Below, piece after piece: positions 7,165 to 24,300 of a stretch of DNA of 32,000 nucleotides. This DNA comes from an uncultured bacterium. GTDB taxonomy: Bacteria; Oederibacteriota; Oederibacteriia; Oederibacteriales; Oederibacteriaceae. The position numbers and the translations under genes are program-made. The stretch's first letter is position 1. Every line of letters begins with the position of its first letter. The DNA is taken from NCBI GenBank assembly GCA_965112635.1, contig OZ218778.1, positions 1,796,404 to 1,828,403 of the forward strand, given 5' to 3'. The notes beneath the pieces were generated by a model. It was not told the DNA's origin, did not search any database, and saw only the letters and a program-made list of their open reading frames with translations.

Positions 7165-7357
7165 ATAAAAATTCCCTGCGGTGTTCGTGATGAAATGACG
7201 AGTTTTGAGCCAACACCTTTTTGGAAGGGACCCGACCTCTAAAAGCAGTGTGCATACCTTGACTCAGGTTGAGGCAGCCTAATGCTTTTTCGGGGGTACC
7301 CACTTATTCATTAAGGTTCAAAAACCAAGTTTCACACGGCACAGGTGGGGAATTTTT
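7165..7357 (+). ncRNA. ssrS: Candidate 6S RNA (ends approximate)
   Basis: The 294-nt zapA-rarA spacer has its own promoter. The 5' AAAAAUUCCCUGCGGUG (7167-) pairs with the 3' CACAGGUGGGGAAUUUUU (-7357) to form a long closing stem ending in a U-run. Internal helices include AAAAGCA/UGCUUUU, and CCUUGAC/GUUGAGG with a UCAG loop. A small GGUU-CAAA-AACC hairpin sits on the 3' side. Size is ~190 nt. The synteny zapA-ssrS-(5-formyl-THF cyclo-ligase) is as in E. coli. Confidence 0.55.
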
Positions 7358-12991: not shown

Positions 12992-13360
12992 GTGATCGCC
13001 GTTAGAAGCAAGCCCGTCAATCAAGAATTGGTGACCACGGTCCTTAAAGCCACTGACGATAAGCAAGCCCATGATGTTGTGCTTTTAGATGTCAGAAAAT
13101 TGACCTATTTGACCGACTACCTGCTTATTTGCCATGGCCATGCCAGGACCCATATTCAAGCCATAGCCGATGAATTAAGGACCAAGCTCAAAGCGATGGG
13201 GCTGGGTTATGGGAGGATGGAGCGGGACAAGGGAGAAACCTGGATCCTGTTGGATTTTAACGAAATTATTTGCCATATTTTTTCAAAGGAAGCTAGGGAG
13301 TTCTATGCTCTGGAGAAGTTTTGGGATGAAGCTCATAAAATCAATGGTAGGATACATTAA
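12992..13360 (+). CDS. rsfS: Ribosomal silencing factor RsfS (Iojap family), GTG start
   Basis: DVVLLDVRKLTYLTDYLLICHG.......AIADEL and W.LLDFNEIICHIFSKEAREFYALEKFW are present. nadD-rsfS is a conserved gene pair. Confidence 0.9.
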   Translation: MIAVRSKPVNQELVTTVLKATDDKQAHDVVLLDVRKLTYLTDYLLICHGHARTHIQAIADELRTKLKAMGLGYGRMERDKGETWILLDFNEIICHIFSKEAREFYALEKFWDEAHKINGRIH

Positions 13361-14145
13361 TGAATTATGATTCTATTTTCAGGGGGTGGAGCATGAGGCA
13401 GATAAAGGTCGTATCCATATTTTTGTTGATGGCAGTCCTTTTAGGGGGGCTTGTCCCAGTATCCGTTTTTGGCAAGGATGAAGACACGAAGCGTGTAGCC
13501 ACAAATTTGTATGTCGTGGATATCCCTACTGCGAACACTTTATTAAGGGGCACTTATGATGCCTTTGCCAGGTTGTACGCTCCCGACGGCATTGTCGGTA
13601 GGTTTGTGATAGCCTTGAACGACCAGTTTCTTTTTGGTGGCGGTATCAACATGGAAAATATCATTGGTTCGGGGGATGTCCAGGCCCAAACTCCGCGTTT
13701 TATAGCTAAATGGAGAATTATTGCGGAGGATAAAAATATCCCTGCCTGCGCCATAGGTTATGATGGGTTGGGTTATGGTGACTATAATTCTGATTCTGGG
13801 GTTTGGCAGCACAAGCAAAAAGGTTTTTATGGCGCAGTGACCAAAGAGTTCAGTAGTTTTGGAATCTTCCAATTGACGTGTGGAATGAGCAGGGTGGATA
13901 GTCGTGTTTATGACCCCCAGCGGGATATCACGGCATTTGCGGGTCTGGCTGCGGCTATTATCAAAGAAGTAGCTCTAAATGTGGAATATGATGATTGGTT
14001 TAATACTCAGGGCGGAGAATTTAATGTCGGGCTTGGTTATAATTTTGACCCTGCCATGAAGCTGGAATTTGATCTCGAGGATATCGGAAGAGCCGGGGAT
14101 TCCCTGGAGCGCACTTTAAAGATCGAATATTGCAATTACATTTAG
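13360..14145 (+). CDS. Exported beta-rich hypothetical protein (the signal peptide begins at M12, so ATG 13393 is an alternative start)
   Basis: MRQIKVVSIFLLMAVLLGGLVPVSVFG is a classical signal peptide. The remainder is rich in alternating aromatic/Gly segments. No family was recognised. Confidence 0.55.
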   Translation: MNYDSIFRGWSMRQIKVVSIFLLMAVLLGGLVPVSVFGKDEDTKRVATNLYVVDIPTANTLLRGTYDAFARLYAPDGIVGRFVIALNDQFLFGGGINMENIIGSGDVQAQTPRFIAKWRIIAEDKNIPACAIGYDGLGYGDYNSDSGVWQHKQKGFYGAVTKEFSSFGIFQLTCGMSRVDSRVYDPQRDITAFAGLAAAIIKEVALNVEYDDWFNTQGGEFNVGLGYNFDPAMKLEFDLEDIGRAGDSLERTLKIEYCNYI

Positions 14146-14205: not shown

Positions 14206-14234
14206 TTGACAAACGGTATTATGACAAGTAATAT
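14206..14234 (+). promoter_or_regulatory. Sigma70-like promoter (TTGACA-17 nt-TAATAT) heading the motor/envelope cluster
   Basis: TTGACA at 14206-14211, a 17-nt spacer, then TAATAT at 14229-14234. It lies in the 187-nt gap after the housekeeping block. Confidence 0.5.
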
Positions 14235-14702: not shown

Positions 14703-16367
14703 GTGAGCTTTATCAAAGATTGTGACAACTGGCTGCGCTTGGGAAAAATGCTTACAGGCTGGTTGTTGTTTGTGAGCATTTTCTTTATGACCAGCATCTA
14801 CGCTTTGGACTTAACCCATGGTGACCTGTTGGTCGGAAAGTTGCAATATGAAAGGGAATTAGAAAGAAGGATACAGTCCATATTGATCTCCACGGTTGGT
14901 CCTCAAAAGGCGAAAGTTTCGGTGACCCTGGAGGTCAACAGCGAAGTCGTCTCCAGCAAGGAGGAAACAATCCATTCCGAGACCACCAGCCAGACCATTG
15001 TATTGAGCAACGGCATCCAAGAGGAGAACTTTGACAATCCTGAGGCGGGGACGGGTGGTCCAGGCAAGGAAGGCAGCGCCAATCAGGCTAGCAGCAATGT
15101 CTTGGAAGAAACCCGGACCACCAAAGAAACCTTGTCGATGCCTTCCAATTTGATCAAAAAGCTGTCTATCTCTTTGTTGATCAGCGACAAGGTCCCTGAT
15201 GCTCTTATCGAAAAAGCCAAGACCATCATTATGGAAGCAGTCAGTTTTAATGCCGACAGGGGGGACCAGCTATCTTTACAAAAGGTCACCTTTATTTCCG
15301 GTGCCGCAGGGGAGATGGAGCAGATCCAGGACCAAAAACAGACAGCGGATTTCTGGCTTGCTTTAACCCGGTATGCCTTGAGCTTGATCTTGGGGGTCGC
15401 TTTCCTTTTGTTTTTGTTCAGTTTGTTAAATACTTTCCGTACCCTGAAACAGGCTGAGATCAATGTGTCCGCTCAGGCCATAGCCGCCAAGGCAGCCCCT
15501 GCCGAAGGCGAGGTCGCAGGACCGGCCGGGGCCACGGCGATCCCGGCTGCGGGATTTGCTGCCGTAGGTGTCCCCGGCACAATGCTTCCCGGGATGCCTA
15601 TGGGAATGCCTGGAACGATCACGGTTGGACCCCAGCGCTTCGCTTTCCTCCAGGAGAAGAATTCCAGGGCTCTTCTGCATTTGATCCAAAAAGAGCCGAT
15701 CCAAACTATTGCTTTAGTGCTTTCCTATATTACCCCAGAGCAGGCAGCCGGGATCTTGCAGTCCCTCCCAGGGGAGATCCAAAGCCAGGTCGCCTCTAGG
15801 ATCTCTACGATCAGTGAAATGTCACCGACGGAAGTGAACAGAATCGAGCAGGATATCAAAGAGAAGATCGATTATGTGGTGGGGGGCAGGGATTCCCTGG
15901 TCAATATCATCCAGAGCATGGGTCCCGATGGAATGAAGGCTATCATCGGCAATCTTGACAGGAGCAATCCAAAGCTGGCCGGTGAATTGAGGCCTTCACT
16001 ATTTACTTTCGATGATGTCCTCCTGTTGGATAGTTTTGCGATCCAGCAAGTTGTCAGGCAACTGAGCATTCCGGAACTGGCCATCGCTTTAAAAAATGCC
16101 AGCGAAGAGATAAAGAACAAGGTTTTTGGGGCCTTGGCTGAGGGTGCCGCCCAGTTGCTCAGGCAGGAACTGGAGTTGATGAGGCCGCTGCCCGCTCGGC
16201 GCTATATAGAAGCGCAGCGTAAATTTATTCAGGCGGTAAGGATACTTGAACAACAGGGCGTAATCTTTGTGCAGAGAGAAGAATCGACTCCTTCCTCAGT
16301 CGGCGGCAACGACCTGGGTGGTGGGCCTGGTTTAGGGCCCGATTCTCCTTTGGCGCCGATGACCTAG
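14703..16367 (+). CDS. FliF-like (YscJ/FliF ring-building, 2 TM) protein fused to FliG middle and C-terminal domains
   Basis: GTG lies 7 nt after GAGGA.
- TM1 is at ~14748-14807.
- Periplasmic region: YERELERRIQSIL..VGPQKAKVSVTLEV and KKLSISLLISDKVP...IIMEAVSFNADRGDQLSLQKVTF, the FliF/YscJ RBM pattern.
- TM2 is at 15351-15428.
- An Ala/Pro/Gly-rich linker runs over ~15470-15640.
- FliG_M-like region: KEPIQTIALVLSYITPEQAAGILQSLPGEIQSQVASRI...VVGGRDSLVNIIQSM (from 15690).
- FliG_C-like region: LFTFDDVLLLDSFAIQQVVRQLSIPELAIALKNASEEIKNKVFGALAEGAAQLLRQELELMRPLP..YIEAQRKFIQAVRILEQQGVI (15999-16270).
- The protein ends in a Gly/Pro-rich tail. Confidence 0.75.
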   Translation: MSFIKDCDNWLRLGKMLTGWLLFVSIFFMTSIYALDLTHGDLLVGKLQYERELERRIQSILISTVGPQKAKVSVTLEVNSEVVSSKEETIHSETTSQTIVLSNGIQEENFDNPEAGTGGPGKEGSANQASSNVLEETRTTKETLSMPSNLIKKLSISLLISDKVPDALIEKAKTIIMEAVSFNADRGDQLSLQKVTFISGAAGEMEQIQDQKQTADFWLALTRYALSLILGVAFLLFLFSLLNTFRTLKQAEINVSAQAIAAKAAPAEGEVAGPAGATAIPAAGFAAVGVPGTMLPGMPMGMPGTITVGPQRFAFLQEKNSRALLHLIQKEPIQTIALVLSYITPEQAAGILQSLPGEIQSQVASRISTISEMSPTEVNRIEQDIKEKIDYVVGGRDSLVNIIQSMGPDGMKAIIGNLDRSNPKLAGELRPSLFTFDDVLLLDSFAIQQVVRQLSIPELAIALKNASEEIKNKVFGALAEGAAQLLRQELELMRPLPARRYIEAQRKFIQAVRILEQQGVIFVQREESTPSSVGGNDLGGGPGLGPDSPLAPMT

Positions 16368-17256: not shown

Positions 17257-17952
17257 ATGGCCATCAGAAAAAGACCTCCTGAAGATATCGAATCCCTTAT
17301 GCATCGCGGGACGCAATGGATCATTGTTTATGGCGACCTGATGTCCTATTTGATGATATTTTTCCTTATCTTGTTCGCATTTGCCTCGGCCAAAAAAGGG
17401 AATTTCGTGGAATCCCTCAAGGGAATTGAAAAAACCTTCGGGCAAAAAGAGAAGAAGATGTCCCAGGAGGCGATGAAAGAGGTTCAGGTCCAATCCGAGA
17501 TACAAAGTTTTCTGGTCGCGCAAAACCTGACCCAAGTTGCCCGCGTGGTCATGACCGAACAAGATCTAAAAGTTATATTGACCAGCCCAGTGCTTTTTCC
17601 GTCCGGCTCGGCAGAGTTGCATCGCAAATCTTACGGTATTTTGCATACTATAGCCCAATCTATGAAAGATATGCCGAACTATGTCACGGTTGAGGGCTTC
17701 ACGGATAATGTCCCAATTCATTCAGCCAAATACAGTTCCAACTGGGAATTGTCCGCGGCGCGAGCCATGCAAGTTGTCAAATACTTTATTGAAGAGGAGA
17801 AAATCTCTCCCACTCAGATCTCCTTCACGGGGTATGGCGAGTACCAGCCGGAATATACCAATGACACCGAAGAACACCGGGGATTGAATAGAAGGATCGA
17901 GATTATCATCCACCGCATTTTGGTCCCCGTCACGGCAACAAAAAAATCGTGA
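17257..17952 (+). CDS. motB: MotB-family stator protein with an OmpA-like peptidoglycan-binding domain
   Basis: WIIVYGDLMSYLMIFFLILF carries the channel Asp (D27, codon 17335-17337). The C-terminus TVEGFTDNVPI....YSSNWELSAARA..V..Y........I.F.GYGEY.P......EEHRGLNRRIEIII is the OmpA/MotB motif. Confidence 0.85.
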   Translation: MAIRKRPPEDIESLMHRGTQWIIVYGDLMSYLMIFFLILFAFASAKKGNFVESLKGIEKTFGQKEKKMSQEAMKEVQVQSEIQSFLVAQNLTQVARVVMTEQDLKVILTSPVLFPSGSAELHRKSYGILHTIAQSMKDMPNYVTVEGFTDNVPIHSAKYSSNWELSAARAMQVVKYFIEEEKISPTQISFTGYGEYQPEYTNDTEEHRGLNRRIEIIIHRILVPVTATKKS

Positions 17953-19499: not shown

Positions 19500-20177
19500 A
19501 TGAAGACAAGGTCAAAAAATATTTCAATGGAATTATCAATCAGCCTTTGTTTTCTTGTTTTGTTCTGCTTGTCCGCAGAGCTATGGGGCGCCCAGCCCAG
19601 CGCGACACCATTTTCCCCGCAGTCGGATAATGACTACGAACAAAATTACAACGAAGCGATGTCCTTTTACAATGCGGGATTGTTGGATAAGGCCAAGGCC
19701 AGCTTTCAAAAGGTGATCAAGATAAGACCAACGGCCGGAGCCTATCATTATCTGGGCATGATCAGCCAAAAAAAGAACCAGGTCAAAGACGCCATCTGGC
19801 AATGGAAGCAGGCTTTAAACTTGGAGCCGCGACTGGCTGTGGTCTGTTTTAATATCGGGTTGGCTTATGGTTCGTTGAAGCAAGTGGACGAACAGATTAA
19901 ATGGTATAAAAAGGCAGTGGCTTTAAATCCGAAATATTCAAAAGCATGGAACAATCTCGGTTCAGTGTATCTTGAGAAGAAGAGGACCACCGATGCATTA
20001 AATGCCTTTAGGACCTCGTTGAAAACCAATCCCCATTATGCTGTGGCCGCGGAGAATCTGGCCCTGGTCTATGAAAAGATGGGTCGTCACATTGAAGCCA
20101 AGAAGGAATGGAAATACGCCGCTTCGATAGAGACGAGGCCTGAGTGGAAAAAGGTTTTGGCAGCCAGAGCCAAGTAA
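19500..20177 (+). CDS. Exported tetratricopeptide-repeat (TPR) protein
   Basis: An N-terminal hydrophobic signal (LSISLCFLVLFCLSAELWGA) is followed by 4-5 TPR units (e.g. AWNNLGSVYLEKKRTTDALNAFRTSLKTNPHYAVAAENLALVYEKMG). Confidence 0.8.
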   Translation: MKTRSKNISMELSISLCFLVLFCLSAELWGAQPSATPFSPQSDNDYEQNYNEAMSFYNAGLLDKAKASFQKVIKIRPTAGAYHYLGMISQKKNQVKDAIWQWKQALNLEPRLAVVCFNIGLAYGSLKQVDEQIKWYKKAVALNPKYSKAWNNLGSVYLEKKRTTDALNAFRTSLKTNPHYAVAAENLALVYEKMGRHIEAKKEWKYAASIETRPEWKKVLAARAK

Positions 20178-20280: not shown

Positions 20281-20429
20281 CCAAAAAAGTGAAGAAATCA
20301 AGGGAATTATCCTGGTTTATCCGCTAAAATTTCCTATAACAATTTATAAAAAATCGAAAAAGCCGGCCCAATGCGCGAGCTTGGGTGGGAAAACTATCCT
20401 CCTATAATTTAGGAACAAGGGGTATACCG

Positions 20430-21365
20430 GTGGCTGATATACATAAAGAAAAAGATATTCTTCTTTTACCCCTTCTCATTACTTTTCTTGCCCTGACTTG
20501 CCTCATCTTCATCCCTGTCCTCGTGTCCGCTGAAGGAAATACTGCCGCTCAATTTTTAAAGATCCCTATCTCAGCCCGTCCAGCCGCCATGACTGCTTTT
20601 GGAGCCGTCTCTGACGACGTGAACGCCTTGCTTTATAACCCGGCCGGCTTATCCCAATTGTCCCAAAACGAGTTCTCCCTCTCCTATGTTAAATATTTCA
20701 CCGACACAAACATGGCATTTTTGGGACTGGCTGTCCCGCTCGCGCACATCGGCACTTTTGGTCTTGGCGTCACATACCTGAGCGTCCTGAATATTGACGC
20801 CAGGGACGCGCAGGAGAACCAGGCCGGAAGTTTTGGGAGCACGGATTGGGCCGTCACTTTGTCCTACGCCAAGGAAAACCTATGGGGCAACCTGAATGCA
20901 GGGGCAAGCCTTAAGGTGGTGGGGGAGACTATCGATGCCACAAGCGCAAACGGGCTGGCCGGCGATGTGGGGGTCCTTTGGATCGGTAAAGAGCCGAGGG
21001 CTTCGATAGGACTGGAAGTGGAAAATGTCGGGACCGGCCTGCAATTCATCAATGTCAGTGATCCCTTACCCTTGGGAGTTGTTCTATCAGGTGCTTACTG
21101 GCCAGTGGAACAGATAGTCGTCGGTACGGATGTGGACATGTATGTGCTGGAGAACAAGACCTATGTGTCCCTGGGCGGGGAAGACTGGCTGACCAAAGAG
21201 TTCGCTCTCAGGCTTGGTTACAAGTTCGGGACCGATCTGGGCCCGCTTTCCGGTTTGACCGGTGGGATAGGGCTGGCCATGGCGGGTTACAGCGTGGACT
21301 ATGCCGCTGGAGATGCCGGAGACCTGGGCACACTGCACCGGGTTTCTTTGGGAATAAAATTTTGA
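20430..21365 (+). CDS. PorV/PorQ-like (FadL-like) outer-membrane beta-barrel protein (the track start 20385 lacks an SD; GTG 20430 follows AAGGGG by 7 nt)
   Basis: Signal peptide is ...LLLPLLITFLALTCLIFIPVLVSA. The mature N-terminus AAQFLKIPISARPAAMTAFGAVSDDVNALLYNPAGLS matches the (P)FL-x-I-x-x-x-A-R-x-x-G/A-M-G...D...NPA motif I associate with the PorV/PorQ family. Alternating beta-strand segments continue to the C-terminal LHRVSLGIKF. Confidence 0.6.
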   Translation: MADIHKEKDILLLPLLITFLALTCLIFIPVLVSAEGNTAAQFLKIPISARPAAMTAFGAVSDDVNALLYNPAGLSQLSQNEFSLSYVKYFTDTNMAFLGLAVPLAHIGTFGLGVTYLSVLNIDARDAQENQAGSFGSTDWAVTLSYAKENLWGNLNAGASLKVVGETIDATSANGLAGDVGVLWIGKEPRASIGLEVENVGTGLQFINVSDPLPLGVVLSGAYWPVEQIVVGTDVDMYVLENKTYVSLGGEDWLTKEFALRLGYKFGTDLGPLSGLTGGIGLAMAGYSVDYAAGDAGDLGTLHRVSLGIKF

Positions 21366-21378
21366 AAGGGCAGGCTGA

Positions 21379-24300
21379 ATGAAGCTGGAAGGCATGTTAA
21401 AAAAAATAGGGAAGGCGGTCGTCCTGGCTCTGGTCCTGGGCCTGGGGATGATGCCTTTGGCCTATGCCGGCACCCGCATCAAAACCGTGGAATTTTTCCT
21501 GGGCCAGTATGAGATGGGGCAGGTCAATCTTATCCCTGCCCTTGAGTTTGACACCCCGTCCAAAACCATCGCCCTTCCAGAATCCTCTATTGTTGTCCGT
21601 TCAGCCTGGGTGGACATGCATTTTGTCAGCCAGGATCAAACCAATTTTGAAGCCAATTTTACCGCTGTCACCTTGACGGCAGGCTCTGCGATAGGTTTTG
21701 CCAGCACCAGCAAATTCGCCGCGGCGACAGACAGCCATGATAATGCTTATCATGTGAGATATGACTTTACTTCGGCCCTGCAAACTTTGACCACCGGCCA
21801 ATGGAATACTGGTCAAAGTGTTCAGGCCAAGATCAAATTTTTTGCCGCTACCAATTTCCATGCGGTCAAGCTGTATATCACCTATGAGTATGATGATACT
21901 TCCGCCACCCAGCTAAAAACCGTCAGATTCCCCCTGGATTCTATGGTGGGAGATTTGACCGTAGCTGACCTTCCTTGTACCGTGATGATCCCTCCAGCGG
22001 AAAGAAGTTCCCCGGGATACAGCTTGAAAGACGCCTGGTTCGAAGTGCACGGGCAGATGGATTATATCTCCGGTGCCATGACCGTAACCGCCCAGATCTA
22101 CCAGAGCGGCACTCCCCAGGGGTCTCCTTCCCAGGGAGGCTGTATCCCTTTGATCACCGGGAACGCTAATTTTGAGTGGACTTATTTTTACGATAATACA
22201 GCCAACCTGGCTCTGGATGGCACAACCCAAAGCCTGCGTTTAACGGCCAAGATGGGCAGTTTCCTGCATCCGGGCGGAGAACTGGTGGTCACTTACCAGG
22301 CCACCAATGATGTTATGGGCGCCTTAAAGACCGTGGAAATACCCCTGGCCCAGGGAGTTCTGGCCAATCAAGGTCCTGCCACTTTTACAATTCTGAATTA
22401 TCTCCAGGATAGCGGGGCCAACATACAAAAAATGTGGGCCAGGGTCAGAGGCGTCTGCAATGTGAACACTTATTCGGCCATTACTATTACCGGTGTGGCC
22501 AATGGCACACCAACGGGTCAGTTTGCTTATGAAATGTTTAGTTCCGGCGGCGGTTCAGATACCATGAATGAATACGAACTCATTTATGAAATGACCCAGC
22601 CCTATGCCAACCCCATGACCGTGACCCTGACCGCTACCGGCGGCTCCTCGCCCAGCGCTGTCCTGCTGATAACCTATGGTTGGAATAAGAACCAGAATGG
22701 ACATGAGTTCAAGACGCACCGGCAGCTGATAGGACAGGAAACCAGCCCTTTCCTGTCCGGGACAGTGGGAAATGTGACCGTTTATGCCCCTGAAACTAAT
22801 ACCAAAACCAAACAGGCTGCTTACGCGGATTGGACCTATTTTGCCGATGCCAATTCTACCAACTGGTGGGTCAGCACTACCATATCCGCGGGTTCGGGTA
22901 TGGCCCCAGCTTATGCCGCATTAGACAACAGCTATAAACAGACAGAAGGGATCAACCCAGACCTGAGTAGTGCTGTTTCTGTTTTGAATGCTTCCAATGG
23001 TCCTTATAGTTTTAATAGGAGCGGCTTTGTCATCGGTATGATGGGCGGGGATATGATCGTGACTTATGATGTAGCTTTCCCCACTTCCACCCCAACAAGT
23101 ACGCCCCCGCCGTCAACGTCAACTCCCACTACTTCTCCGACCCGGACGGCTACGGTTACGCCAACTGGAACGGCAACAACAACACCTACATCCACCTCTA
23201 CTAGAACTGCCACTAATACGGTTACTCCAACTTCCACATCGACAACCACCGTTACACTGAGTCAAACAGCTTCGGTCACTCCCAGCCTGACAATCACTCC
23301 CACTGGAACCCAGACACTCACGCAGACCTATACCGCCGGTCCCAGCCAGACGGCTACAATGACCCCTACGAGCACAACCACGATGACGGTAACAGCAACC
23401 CCTTCAGCAACGTTGACTATGACTACCACAGTCACGCAGACAGCCACACCGAATGGCGGCGGGACGACGATGCTGGATGCGATGACTGGGTTCAGCCTAG
23501 GTAGCGACCCGTGCGGCTACTTTCCTTTGCCAAGTGGTTCCATTACTCTTTCTAAAAATTCCAGTAACTATTACGATTGTTGCAATTCTTTACAAATATC
23601 CAACCTTACAAGCACTGGTACTATGGTGCAGATAAAAGTTGAAGATATCACAGGTTCTCCCCAGGATTGGTCCTGTTATTCATCCGTGTCTTTTTGGATA
23701 ATGGCAACTACTTCCGGGGTGCAATATCGGATTGGTTTAAGAGACAACTCCAGTAACTGGACTTGGTCAAGCACCAGTCCGCTTACTTGTCCAACCAGCT
23801 GGACGCAAGTAACCGTCCAGTTGCAAATGTTGGGAAATCCTACCGGATACGACGGATTTAAAAGCGGTTACCTAGGCCCTAATGACTTTAGCCAACTAAC
23901 TTGCGTGGAAATCGAATGTGATACGGCCAATGCGACCATACTAATGAATGACCTGGCGTTAGAAGGTAGTCCCTGCACACCTTCTCCCACGCCGTCTGGG
24001 TCGACCTATACTTATTCCTATACCTATACTTACACAACACCGCCGACCAACACCAATACCAATACTCCCACGCCTAGCAGCGCCACCTTGTACCTGTTGA
24101 ATACGACAACGGGTGATTCCAGTTTGTGGTATATGGACAAAACCAACCCGTCGCCCTCCACGGATACCACCACAATTCTTTCCACGGGGACCACGGCGGC
24201 TGGTAACTATTTCCTCGTTGAGCCTGGTGTGGCCAATTCCACCTCTTCAGGCACTGTTCTTCCCACTACTTTCAGCCAGATGGGCTGGAGAAGTCCAAAT

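Follow-up and report, generated by a model that had tools for sequence, protein, structure and literature searches.

The window analysed here is the whole stretch of 32,000 nucleotides taken from contig OZ218778.1 of an uncultured bacterium, and the element in question is a single open reading frame (ORF) that joins a FliF-type ring domain to the middle and C-terminal domains of FliG. From the N-terminus, the encoded polypeptide consists of a transmembrane (TM) helix, a FliF ring-building motif 3 (RBM3)-type domain, a second TM helix, a disordered Ala/Pro/Gly linker, FliG_M, and FliG_C. The fusion gene is the second of a cluster of eight, which runs in the order of a small membrane ORF, the fusion, MotA, MotB, a secreted Ig-like protein, a tetratricopeptide repeat (TPR) protein, a PorV/PorQ-family barrel, and a giant secreted protein. 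The coordinates of the features are listed in Table 1.

Table 1 Coordinates of the features of the fusion gene and its cluster in the window.
Feature	Position	Strand	Details
Candidate sigma-70-like promoter	14206..14234	+	TTGACA-17 nt-TAATAT; 10/12 matches; consensus match only
Small ORF, 119 aa	14333..14692	+	C-terminal hydrophobic helix; called as a gene in public assemblies
FliF(RBM3)-FliG(MC) fusion, whole rotor subunit	14703..16367	+	554 aa
TM1, aa 17-35	14751..14807	+	Hydropathy scan; AF2 helix at 2-35
FliF RBM3-type periplasmic ring-building domain, aa 36-223	14808..15371	+	PF08345; profile against PDB; Foldseek
TM2, aa 224-242	15372..15428	+	Hydropathy scan; AF2
Disordered Ala/Pro/Gly-rich linker, aa ~262-311	15486..15635	+	Replaces FliF C-tail and FliG_N; pLDDT
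FliG middle domain, aa 312-392	15636..15878	+	Pfam; PDB alignment; Foldseek
Counterpart of E125-H126-P127-Q128	15693..15704	+	E331-P332-I333-Q334 (EPIQ)
FliG C-terminal domain, aa 417-521	15951..16265	+	Pfam; PDB alignment; Foldseek
Torque helix LAEGAAQLLRQELE	16134..16175	+	Includes G481, Q488, and E489
MotA/PomA flagellar-type stator A subunit, 254 aa	16422..17186	+	PF01618; public annotation start 16431
MotB stator B subunit	17257..17952	+	Plug PF13677, 3e-10; OmpA-type peptidoglycan-binding PF00691, 8e-21
Secreted/anchored all-beta protein, 496 aa	17969..19459	+	Three weak Ig/CARDB-like repeats; weak Pfam; annotated start 18005
TPR protein	19500..20177	+	Counterpart of TPR half of PorV/Q-TPR proteins in related loci
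PorV/PorQ-family outer-membrane beta-barrel	20385..21365	+	NF033709, 157 bits (cut-off 90)
Giant secreted protein, 3740 aa in public annotation	21379..32000, continues past window	+	Signal peptide

The fusion frame opens with a GTG codon and runs through 554 codons with zero internal stops. Its ribosome-binding site (GAGGA, 6 nt 5' of the start) overlaps the stop codon with which the small ORF before it ends. When 1.84 billion cluster representatives were searched exhaustively with a profile, 165 proteins were retrieved, most of which represent clusters at 50% identity, and full-length matches of 450–730 residues headed the list. In 129 of the 165 proteins, FliG_MC was preceded by a TM segment and 150 or more residues, which was the definition used for the fusion architecture; a few of the 129 are canonical FliF-FliG fusions of full length. 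The same candidates and nothing new came from a second, word-indexed search, for which a profile of 77 sequences was used. A sequence-only reading of this DNA had described the ORF as a natural FliF-FliG fusion, which is borne out by the intact frame, the recurrence of the architecture, and the conserved motifs in both halves. That an assembly error or frameshift, or the decay of a relic, has joined two former genes is highly improbable. The low-complexity linker is of an indel-prone sequence type, but the identical 554-residue product is encoded on two contigs, one of 231 kb from ENA and one of 15.5 kb from Logan, in addition to the 2.88-Mb NCBI contig (three records that possibly derive from one sequencing project), and orthologues with 56% and 29% identity keep a single frame through a linker of other length and sequence.

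The two TM helices proposed in the sequence-only reading were located by hydropathy, and they bracket approximately 188 periplasmic residues, close to the 180 estimated there; this arrangement is conserved across the family. An AlphaFold2 (AF2) model of the fusion built with the 77 family sequences had a mean pLDDT of 78.5 and was confident for the RBM3 core and FliG_MC, while pLDDT fell below 50 in the shortened collar insertion (residues ~94–134) and the linker (residues 263–300). PF08345 (YscJ_FliF_C) matched residues 61–197 with an E-value of 3.1e-11 and with its full profile covered. A profile built on the periplasmic parts of 25 family members was searched against the PDB, where it matched residues 240–448 of Salmonella FliF, which comprise RBM3 and the collar (4e-9), and 9yh6 (2.5e-9). 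The only other match was SpoIIIAG (PDB 5wc3, 2e-5). Foldseek against the PDB likewise returned the S-ring chains of Salmonella and Vibrio FliF (4e-5 to 3e-4). RBM1 and RBM2 (PF01514, SctJ/YscJ-like) gave no match in a Pfam scan of the fusion, the NCBIfam fliF model TIGR00206 aligned only at profile positions 241–340 (37 bits against a cut-off of 129.75), and there is no space for the two domains because the periplasmic part has 188 residues. The FliF/YscJ ring patterns seen previously by eye are therefore those of the FliF RBM3/collar module, and the YscJ-like RBM1/RBM2 part of that description falls away. In flagella, RBM1 and RBM2 are the FliF domains around the type III export gate.

The cytoplasmic half is FliG. 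PF14841 (FliG_M) matched residues 322–392 (2.6e-20) and PF01706 (FliG_C) residues 417–521 (7.7e-29), and residues 312–525 aligned to FliG-MC of Thermotoga maritima (PDB 1lkv, E = 7.5e-40). The identity to flagellar FliG is 35–41%. Foldseek of the fusion model against the PDB gave FliG-MC at 1.7e-14, with TM-scores of 0.82–0.89 for FliG_M chains and 0.86–0.93 for FliG_C, the latter with root-mean-square deviations of 1.2–1.9 Å to 1qc7 and 8ucs_H. An MgtE_N identity of this half, raised as a concern at the outset, was rejected since the best MgtE match in Foldseek had an E-value of 0.1 and the Pfam assignment is FliG. The expected absence of FliG_N was also confirmed: the interval from TM2 to FliG_M holds just about 50 disordered residues, and a weak PF14842 (FliG_N) match at residues 333–421 lies over FliG_M and the adjoining helix and marks no separate N-domain. 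Consistently, the NCBIfam model TIGR00207 began to match at profile position 111 (151.8 against a cut-off of 226.7).

The functional positions of FliG were compared in one alignment of the 129 fusions and 21 canonical FliG sequences, with residue numbers following the FliG, MotA, and MotB sequences of Escherichia coli MG1655. The FliM-binding motif EHPQR, which canonical FliGs keep, is degenerate throughout the family. At the EHPQ site Glu is present in 99 of 129 fusions, His in none, and Pro in 86, and Gln is mostly replaced by Glu; the "KEPIQ" noted earlier for the window protein is EPIQ with its preceding Lys. Arg160 (R366 in the window protein) is Arg in 18/129 fusions as compared with 15/21 canonical FliGs. 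In the torque helix, the sequence-only reading had correctly placed the loss of Arg281 and the alteration of the acidic pair. Arg281, present in 20 of 21 canonical sequences, is replaced by Gly in 109 of 129 fusions (G481 here). Asp288 is Q488 in the window protein and Glu (72) or Gln (55) in the fusions, while canonical FliGs have Glu or Asp. At Asp289 (E489), Glu is found in 100/129 fusions and Asp or Glu in canonical FliGs. Arg297 is also lost: the window protein has P497 and the fusions have Thr, Pro, or Ser, with nothing basic among the commonest residues (which cover 114 of the 129 fusions), as against Arg in 16/21 canonical FliGs. Lys264, in turn, is kept as K464, with Lys or Arg in 99/129 fusions and Lys in 20/21 canonical FliGs. 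The Gly-Gly hinge and an MFxF-type motif (LFTF in the window protein) are retained in the fusions. Judging from these alignments, the diverged positions are a trait of the family rather than drift in one genome.

The stator genes that follow the fusion are of the flagellar type. Residues 1–250 of the window MotA aligned to the solved flagellar MotA/PomA structures 9lu9, 8ucs, 6ysf, and 8brd with E-values of 6e-42 to 8e-38, and the NCBIfam PomA/MotA models matched at 3e-54, whereas the TolQ and ExbB models reached only 6e-5 and 4e-3. The scores were below the NCBIfam equivalog cut-offs (184 bits against 341 for PomA, and 180 against 237), and by sequence the protein appears to be a relative of the PomA/MotA models and the equivalog of no named one. 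The channel residues of the stator are intact, namely Glu150, Pro173, and Pro222 of MotA and Asp27 of MotB, which aligns to the channel Asp32 of E. coli. In the flagellar motor, MotA Glu98 pairs with FliG Arg281 and MotA Arg90 with FliG Asp289 (PMC12505986, PMC7564593). One of these salt bridges is lost on both sides in the window because Glu98 of MotA is Pro and Arg281 of FliG is Gly, while the second pair is kept in the window lineage as Arg90 and E489. These substitutions agree with the earlier suggestion that the rotor may contact its stator differently. In the subgroup of the window (loci L003, L008–L010, and L055), position 98 is Ala, Val, or Pro. A strict family-wide co-variation of MotA Glu98 and FliG Arg281 was considered and rejected, as it holds only in this subgroup; the co-variation at the interface is suggestive and not universal. 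Two tandem MotB paralogues follow one MotA at loci L003, L008, L009, L010, L039, and L055, and the window has one MotB.

Further 3' in the cluster, the PorV/PorQ-family barrel matched a hidden Markov model (HMM) built on the neighbours of related fusions with an E-value of 1.5e-60, and it scored under the PorQ and PorV equivalog cut-offs. It lies directly 5' of the giant gene, an arrangement that recalls sprB-sprF in reverse order. The PorV/PorQ family normally belongs to the Bacteroidota type IX secretion system (T9SS), and it occurs here in a lineage for which Candidatus Poribacteria supply the closest named relatives by PheT (~45% identity). The giant protein is rich in Thr (18.7%) and Ser (10.8%) and had no Pfam match over positions 21,379–32,000; its ORF contains a (T-A-T-Q)n (Thr-Ala-Thr-Gln) and 384-bp tandem-repeat region at positions 29,530–30,605. 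The last 10 kb of the window show negative GC skew and strongly positive AT skew, which are not a replication landmark because the Thr codons of the giant gene explain them. The Ig-like protein had no homologue in related loci and is lineage-specific, and its single-sequence AF2 model was unusable (pLDDT 44); it was considered as a conceivable periplasmic shaft of the GldM kind.

Related loci were collected by a genome scan with a 14-sequence alignment carrying one torque-helix pattern, the alignment of 77 sequences being too diverse. The resulting 54 loci are a biased sample because of this single pattern, and about half of them come from Thermotogota, Spirochaetes, and Firmicutes and are ordinary fliG genes. 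Loci from Polyangiales and Pseudomonadota (e.g., L054) were rejected as fusions, since they are canonical fliF-fliG-fliH-fliI clusters. The scan left 21 fusion loci in metagenome-assembled genomes (MAGs); the source genome of the window is outside the scanned collection. According to the genome labels, at least 12 belong to Elusimicrobiota, one to Sumerlaeota, one to Deltaproteobacteria, and three to "Clostridia", and one is unclassified. The MAGs CAYFRM01, CAYOFG01, and CAZJWT01 (L005, L006, L009, L010, and L055) carry the label "uncultured Clostridia bacterium", which is doubtful because PorV-type outer-membrane barrels and an OmpA-anchored MotB are encoded. Three proteins, P0088 (787 aa), P0111 (774 aa), and P0159 (869 aa), are apparent natural full-length FliF-FliG fusions of another kind, as they keep Arg at the 281 position and a canonical EHPQ (ERPQ in P0159). 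Given these, FliF and FliG may have become covalently linked on more than one occasion. In a crude neighbour-joining tree of the FliG_MC region, canonical FliGs and the fusions were not cleanly separated, and the tree supported monophyly of the fusion family neither way.

The recurrent gene order at the related loci is a giant or C-terminal domain (CTD) protein, a PorV/Q barrel-TPR protein, the fusion, a coiled-coil protein, FlbD, MotA, and MotB (sometimes in two copies). The barrel and TPR parts form one fused gene of ~530–840 aa in the relatives, and the window differs in that they are two separate genes located 3' of the fusion. The barrel-TPR gene was found immediately 5' of the fusion in 24 of 26 related loci with a readable upstream flank, that is, in all 21 loci selected by motif and in three (L064, L065, and L066) of five loci chosen regardless of motif. 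MotAB adjoins the fusion in 15 of the 21 genome-scan loci and also in L003, a distant family member from another sample. MotA stands beside the fusion in the distant members L062, L063, and L066, accompanied by MotB in L062 and L063. Proteins 5' of the barrel in the relatives end in CHU_C (type B T9SS signal) or FlgD_ig-like domains. CHU_C scored 36–38 bits (cut-off 27) in L008 and the identical-tailed L009, and L064 proteins likewise bear CHU_C annotations; at other related loci, there were FlgD_ig matches or weak matches to Por_Secre_tail.

Linkage to outer-membrane proteins is also known from Tol and Ton, and one might suppose that the fusion is a static ring scaffold, a platform that does not rotate, on which MotAB acts as an ExbBD/TolQR-like energiser that hands proton-motive force on to an outer-membrane process, the ring itself not turning continuously. 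A natural FliF-FliG fusion exists in the non-flagellated Chlamydiaceae and was proposed to be a scaffold with the injectisome (PMC4768692), the NCBIfam model of that protein matches the fusion weakly, and two of the five conserved charged residues of the torque helix are lost. Nevertheless, the helix is largely kept (Lys264, Asp288 as Glu/Gln, and Asp289 as Glu) along with the hinge and the MFxF-type motif, while the chlamydial protein is without FliG_C. In addition, the stators fall by sequence in the flagellar torque-generating clade, and their MotB retains a plug and a peptidoglycan anchor, as is typical where a stator acts on a rotor. We therefore regard a static platform as unlikely.

A Pfam scan of 105 further neighbour ORFs found FlbD as the only recurrent flagellar family. 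FliM, FliN, FlhA, FliP, and rod genes were absent near the fusion in the window and in the 21 related loci (up to 21 kb). The T9SS components GldK/PorK, GldL/PorL, GldM/PorM, GldN/PorN, and SprA/Sov were likewise absent from the scanned window ORFs and from the recurrent Pfam families of the 105 neighbour ORFs, a search that covered the loci. The fusion could in principle be the rotor of a genuine, streamlined flagellum that has it in place of separate FliF and FliG and whose other genes lie elsewhere. The FliG_MC identity to flagellar FliG, the PomA/MotA type of the stator, the position of FlbD, a flagellar-operon protein, before motA in the related loci, and the function of engineered FliF-FliG fusions in Salmonella all fit this idea. 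Against it stand the missing RBM1 and RBM2, domains that surround the export gate; the degenerate FliM-binding motif; the lack of any further flagellar gene that recurs at the loci; a conserved neighbour that is an outer-membrane PorV/Q-TPR protein; and the presence of the whole module in two copies in several genomes. Taken together, we consider a flagellar rotor decidedly improbable.

Other genes recur around the fusion in the relatives. A cytoplasmic protein of 1100–1650 aa without a Pfam match, in which a poly-Pro N-terminus precedes a long coiled coil rich in Glu and Lys, lies between the fusion and FlbD-MotAB in most of them (L005:4189-7875, L011:5532-10499, L025:11972-15880, and others), and it is a candidate for the cytoplasmic partner of a FliG ring without FliM. 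In L008, L009, L010, and L055, a Cache-HAMP histidine kinase and triple-receiver response regulators with and without GGDEF are encoded 3' of MotB, which suggests two-component and cyclic di-GMP control. Two single-domain receivers adjoin the fusion in L063, and a Roadblock/LC7 (MglB-like) gene is nearby in L064. Three MAGs carry two diverged copies of the barrel-fusion-MotAB module (L005/L009, L006/L010, and L007/L008). One copy type in the two-copy MAGs has the coiled-coil protein and FlbD, and the other has the double MotB and the kinase and regulator genes.

The absence of RBM1/RBM2, the degenerate FliM motif, and the lack of a recurrent flagellar gene save FlbD point to a non-flagellar and probably non-switching motor. 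We consider it fairly likely that the fusion and MotAB form such a flagellum-derived motor, rotary or at least torque-generating, coupled to the conserved outer-membrane neighbours. In the proposed mechanism, the RBM3 domain, held by the two TM helices, would oligomerise into a ring like the S-ring. Flagellar RBM3 rings are 33–35-mers. Every subunit would hang one FliG middle and C-terminal domain under the membrane through the flexible linker; since each subunit carries its own FliG_MC, the rotor ring would be built at a 1:1 ratio without FliG_N or the FliF tail. Co-transcribed units of the MotA5MotB2 type, anchored to peptidoglycan through MotB, would conduct ions via the conserved Asp/Pro channel, rotate, and push the torque helix of FliG_C. 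The contact between rotor and stator would use a reduced set of charges, in which the Arg90-E489 pair is kept and the Glu98-Arg281 pair is lost. For the output, the motor may be coupled to the PorV/PorQ-type barrel with its periplasmic TPR domain, the predicted conserved partner that faces the periplasm, and to the giant surface proteins, which it might move, secrete, or anchor as GldLM drives the T9SS adhesin SprB. By this analogy we favour movement, secretion, or anchoring of the giant proteins as the output, with modest confidence.

Several observations weigh against the proposed motor or parts of it. The short members L062 and L063 have MotAB and no PorV/Q gene nearby, and in the longer member L064, MotAB is missing within 10 kb. 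HMM searches of the window detected no FlbD, no coiled-coil protein (f4), and no CTD proteins (f5 type), and the first two of these absences count against the proposal. Since the negative result for flagellar genes covers the loci, a flagellar regulon may lie elsewhere in the 2.88-Mb genome. At the interface, MotA in other subgroups keeps Glu98 though FliG has Gly, so that the co-loss is not family-wide, and in some subgroups Arg90 is replaced by His or Ser with a Lys adjacent. The AF2 model of the fusion is a monomer and says nothing on ring formation. The giant protein was read to the end of the window, and its C-terminus with the sorting-signal region lies beyond. Finally, no physical route was identified by which the ring in the inner membrane could reach across the peptidoglycan to the outer membrane.

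Upstream of the cluster, the window contains housekeeping genes: infC, an rlmB-like gene, pheST, zapA, rarA, a 5-formyltetrahydrofolate cyclo-ligase gene, proBA, nadD, and rsfS, and also 6S RNA. The latter (RF00013; 92.7 bits, gathering score 46.4) occupies positions 7170–7355 of the forward strand between zapA and the rarA/mgsA-type AAA+ gene. A 261-residue secreted protein without a family match is encoded at 13,360–14,145 (+); its C-terminal end is beta-rich and aromatic, and it could be a small barrel of the outer membrane. Because its start overlaps the rsfS stop, the gene is perhaps part of the housekeeping operon and not of the motor cluster. The cluster begins after a 187-bp gap carrying the best promoter-like site of the scan. 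The small ORF at the head of the cluster had no Pfam match, and by its position it may be part of the system.

In kind, the system belongs to the known flagellar rotor-stator family, and it may realistically form the core of a new machine. Somewhat doubtful, and held here only tentatively, is a wider reading in which the fusion, MotAB, the PorV/Q-TPR protein, and the giant proteins constitute an undescribed envelope machine, or, in a related form, the family descends from or preserves a pre-flagellar rotor design. As an envelope machine, a flagellum-type rotor and stator without type III export, rod, or filament would deploy or move giant adhesins. In searches of the full-text literature, no account of a TM-RBM3-TM-FliG_MC protein with a dedicated MotAB or a PorV linkage came up. 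To our knowledge, the FliG-MotA torque interface has no use outside the flagellum, and the non-flagellar MotAB relatives that we know of (ExbBD, TolQR, AglRQS, GldL, and ZorAB) all work on other partners. A module that is widespread and conserved and consists of only the RBM3 ring, FliG_MC, and flagellar-type stators would show that the rotor-stator core is separable from type III secretion, and its linkage, across many lineages, to giant CTD proteins and barrels of the PorV/PorQ type points to an unexplored way to power surface proteins. If the envelope machine exists, Elusimicrobiota-like and other uncultured diderm lineages would possess a gliding or secretion motor of a new kind. If a rotor made of an RBM3 ring, FliG, and MotAB preceded the flagellum, the family would stand as a concrete intermediate stage in the origin of the flagellar motor. 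A compact, minimal rotor encoded by one gene would also be material for structural and biophysical work, and the family would serve as a natural experiment that reveals which charges between stator and rotor can be dispensed with.

With the rotor-stator core of flagella, the family shares the folds of RBM3, FliG_M, and FliG_C, the Gly-Gly hinge and MFxF-type motif, the equivalents of FliG Lys264 and Asp289, MotA Arg90, Glu150, Pro173, and Pro222, the plug, channel Asp, and OmpA domain of MotB, and, in the relatives, the order FlbD-motA-motB. It differs in that the rotor is one polypeptide and not two, without RBM1/RBM2, the FliF C-tail, and FliG_N; in its collar insertion of ~40–60 aa as against ~110 in FliF; in the degenerate EHPQR, the change of Arg281 to Gly, and the loss of Arg297; and in a neighbourhood without genes for FliM, FliN, the export apparatus, rod, and hook. 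The SpoIIIAG sporulation ring has in common an RBM3-type fold with a beta insertion, and it forms a large homo-oligomeric ring; unlike the window fusion, SpoIIIAG has a single TM helix, no FliG, and no stator. With the T9SS and gliding machinery of Bacteroidota (GldLM/PorLM, PorV, PorQ, PorP/SprF, and SprB), the loci share an ion-driven, 5:2-type motor gene pair beside a PorV/PorQ-family barrel and nearby giant Thr/Ser-rich or CTD-bearing surface proteins, and their order of cargo and then barrel recalls sprB-sprF. In contrast to the T9SS, the motor consists of MotAB and a FliF-FliG ring and not of GldL/GldM, no GldK, GldN, or SprA/Sov homologue is found in the window or among the recurrent neighbours, and the hosts are not Bacteroidota.

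The nearest precedent of the window fusion is the chlamydial FliF-FliG_M fusion. This protein (CT719 type) has ~330 aa with an RBM2-like domain and FliG_M only, and it was reported to be without a SpoIIIAG-like RBM3; it has no FliG_C or torque helix, and MotAB is not listed among the few chlamydial flagellar genes (Bergeron, 2016, PMC4768692). Both are natural two-TM FliF-like proteins with a short periplasmic part, a covalent FliG domain, and a non-flagellar context. The present family shows the opposite selection, namely RBM3, FliG_MC, and stators, and the match of the window protein to the chlamydial model NF004606 (PRK05934) is confined to residues 317–363 with 26 bits against a cut-off of 297. 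Engineered or spontaneous fusions in Salmonella and Vibrio (PDB 8z4d/8z4g), unlike the window family, contain full-length FliF with all three RBMs and work in a complete flagellum with FliM/FliN, and they demonstrate that rings can assemble and rotate when FliF and FliG are covalently linked 1:1. Moreover, Salmonella FliF-FliG deletion fusions without most of FliG_N are motile (Thomas et al., 2001, reviewed in PMC7355467), and the architecture of the window protein is therefore mechanically plausible.

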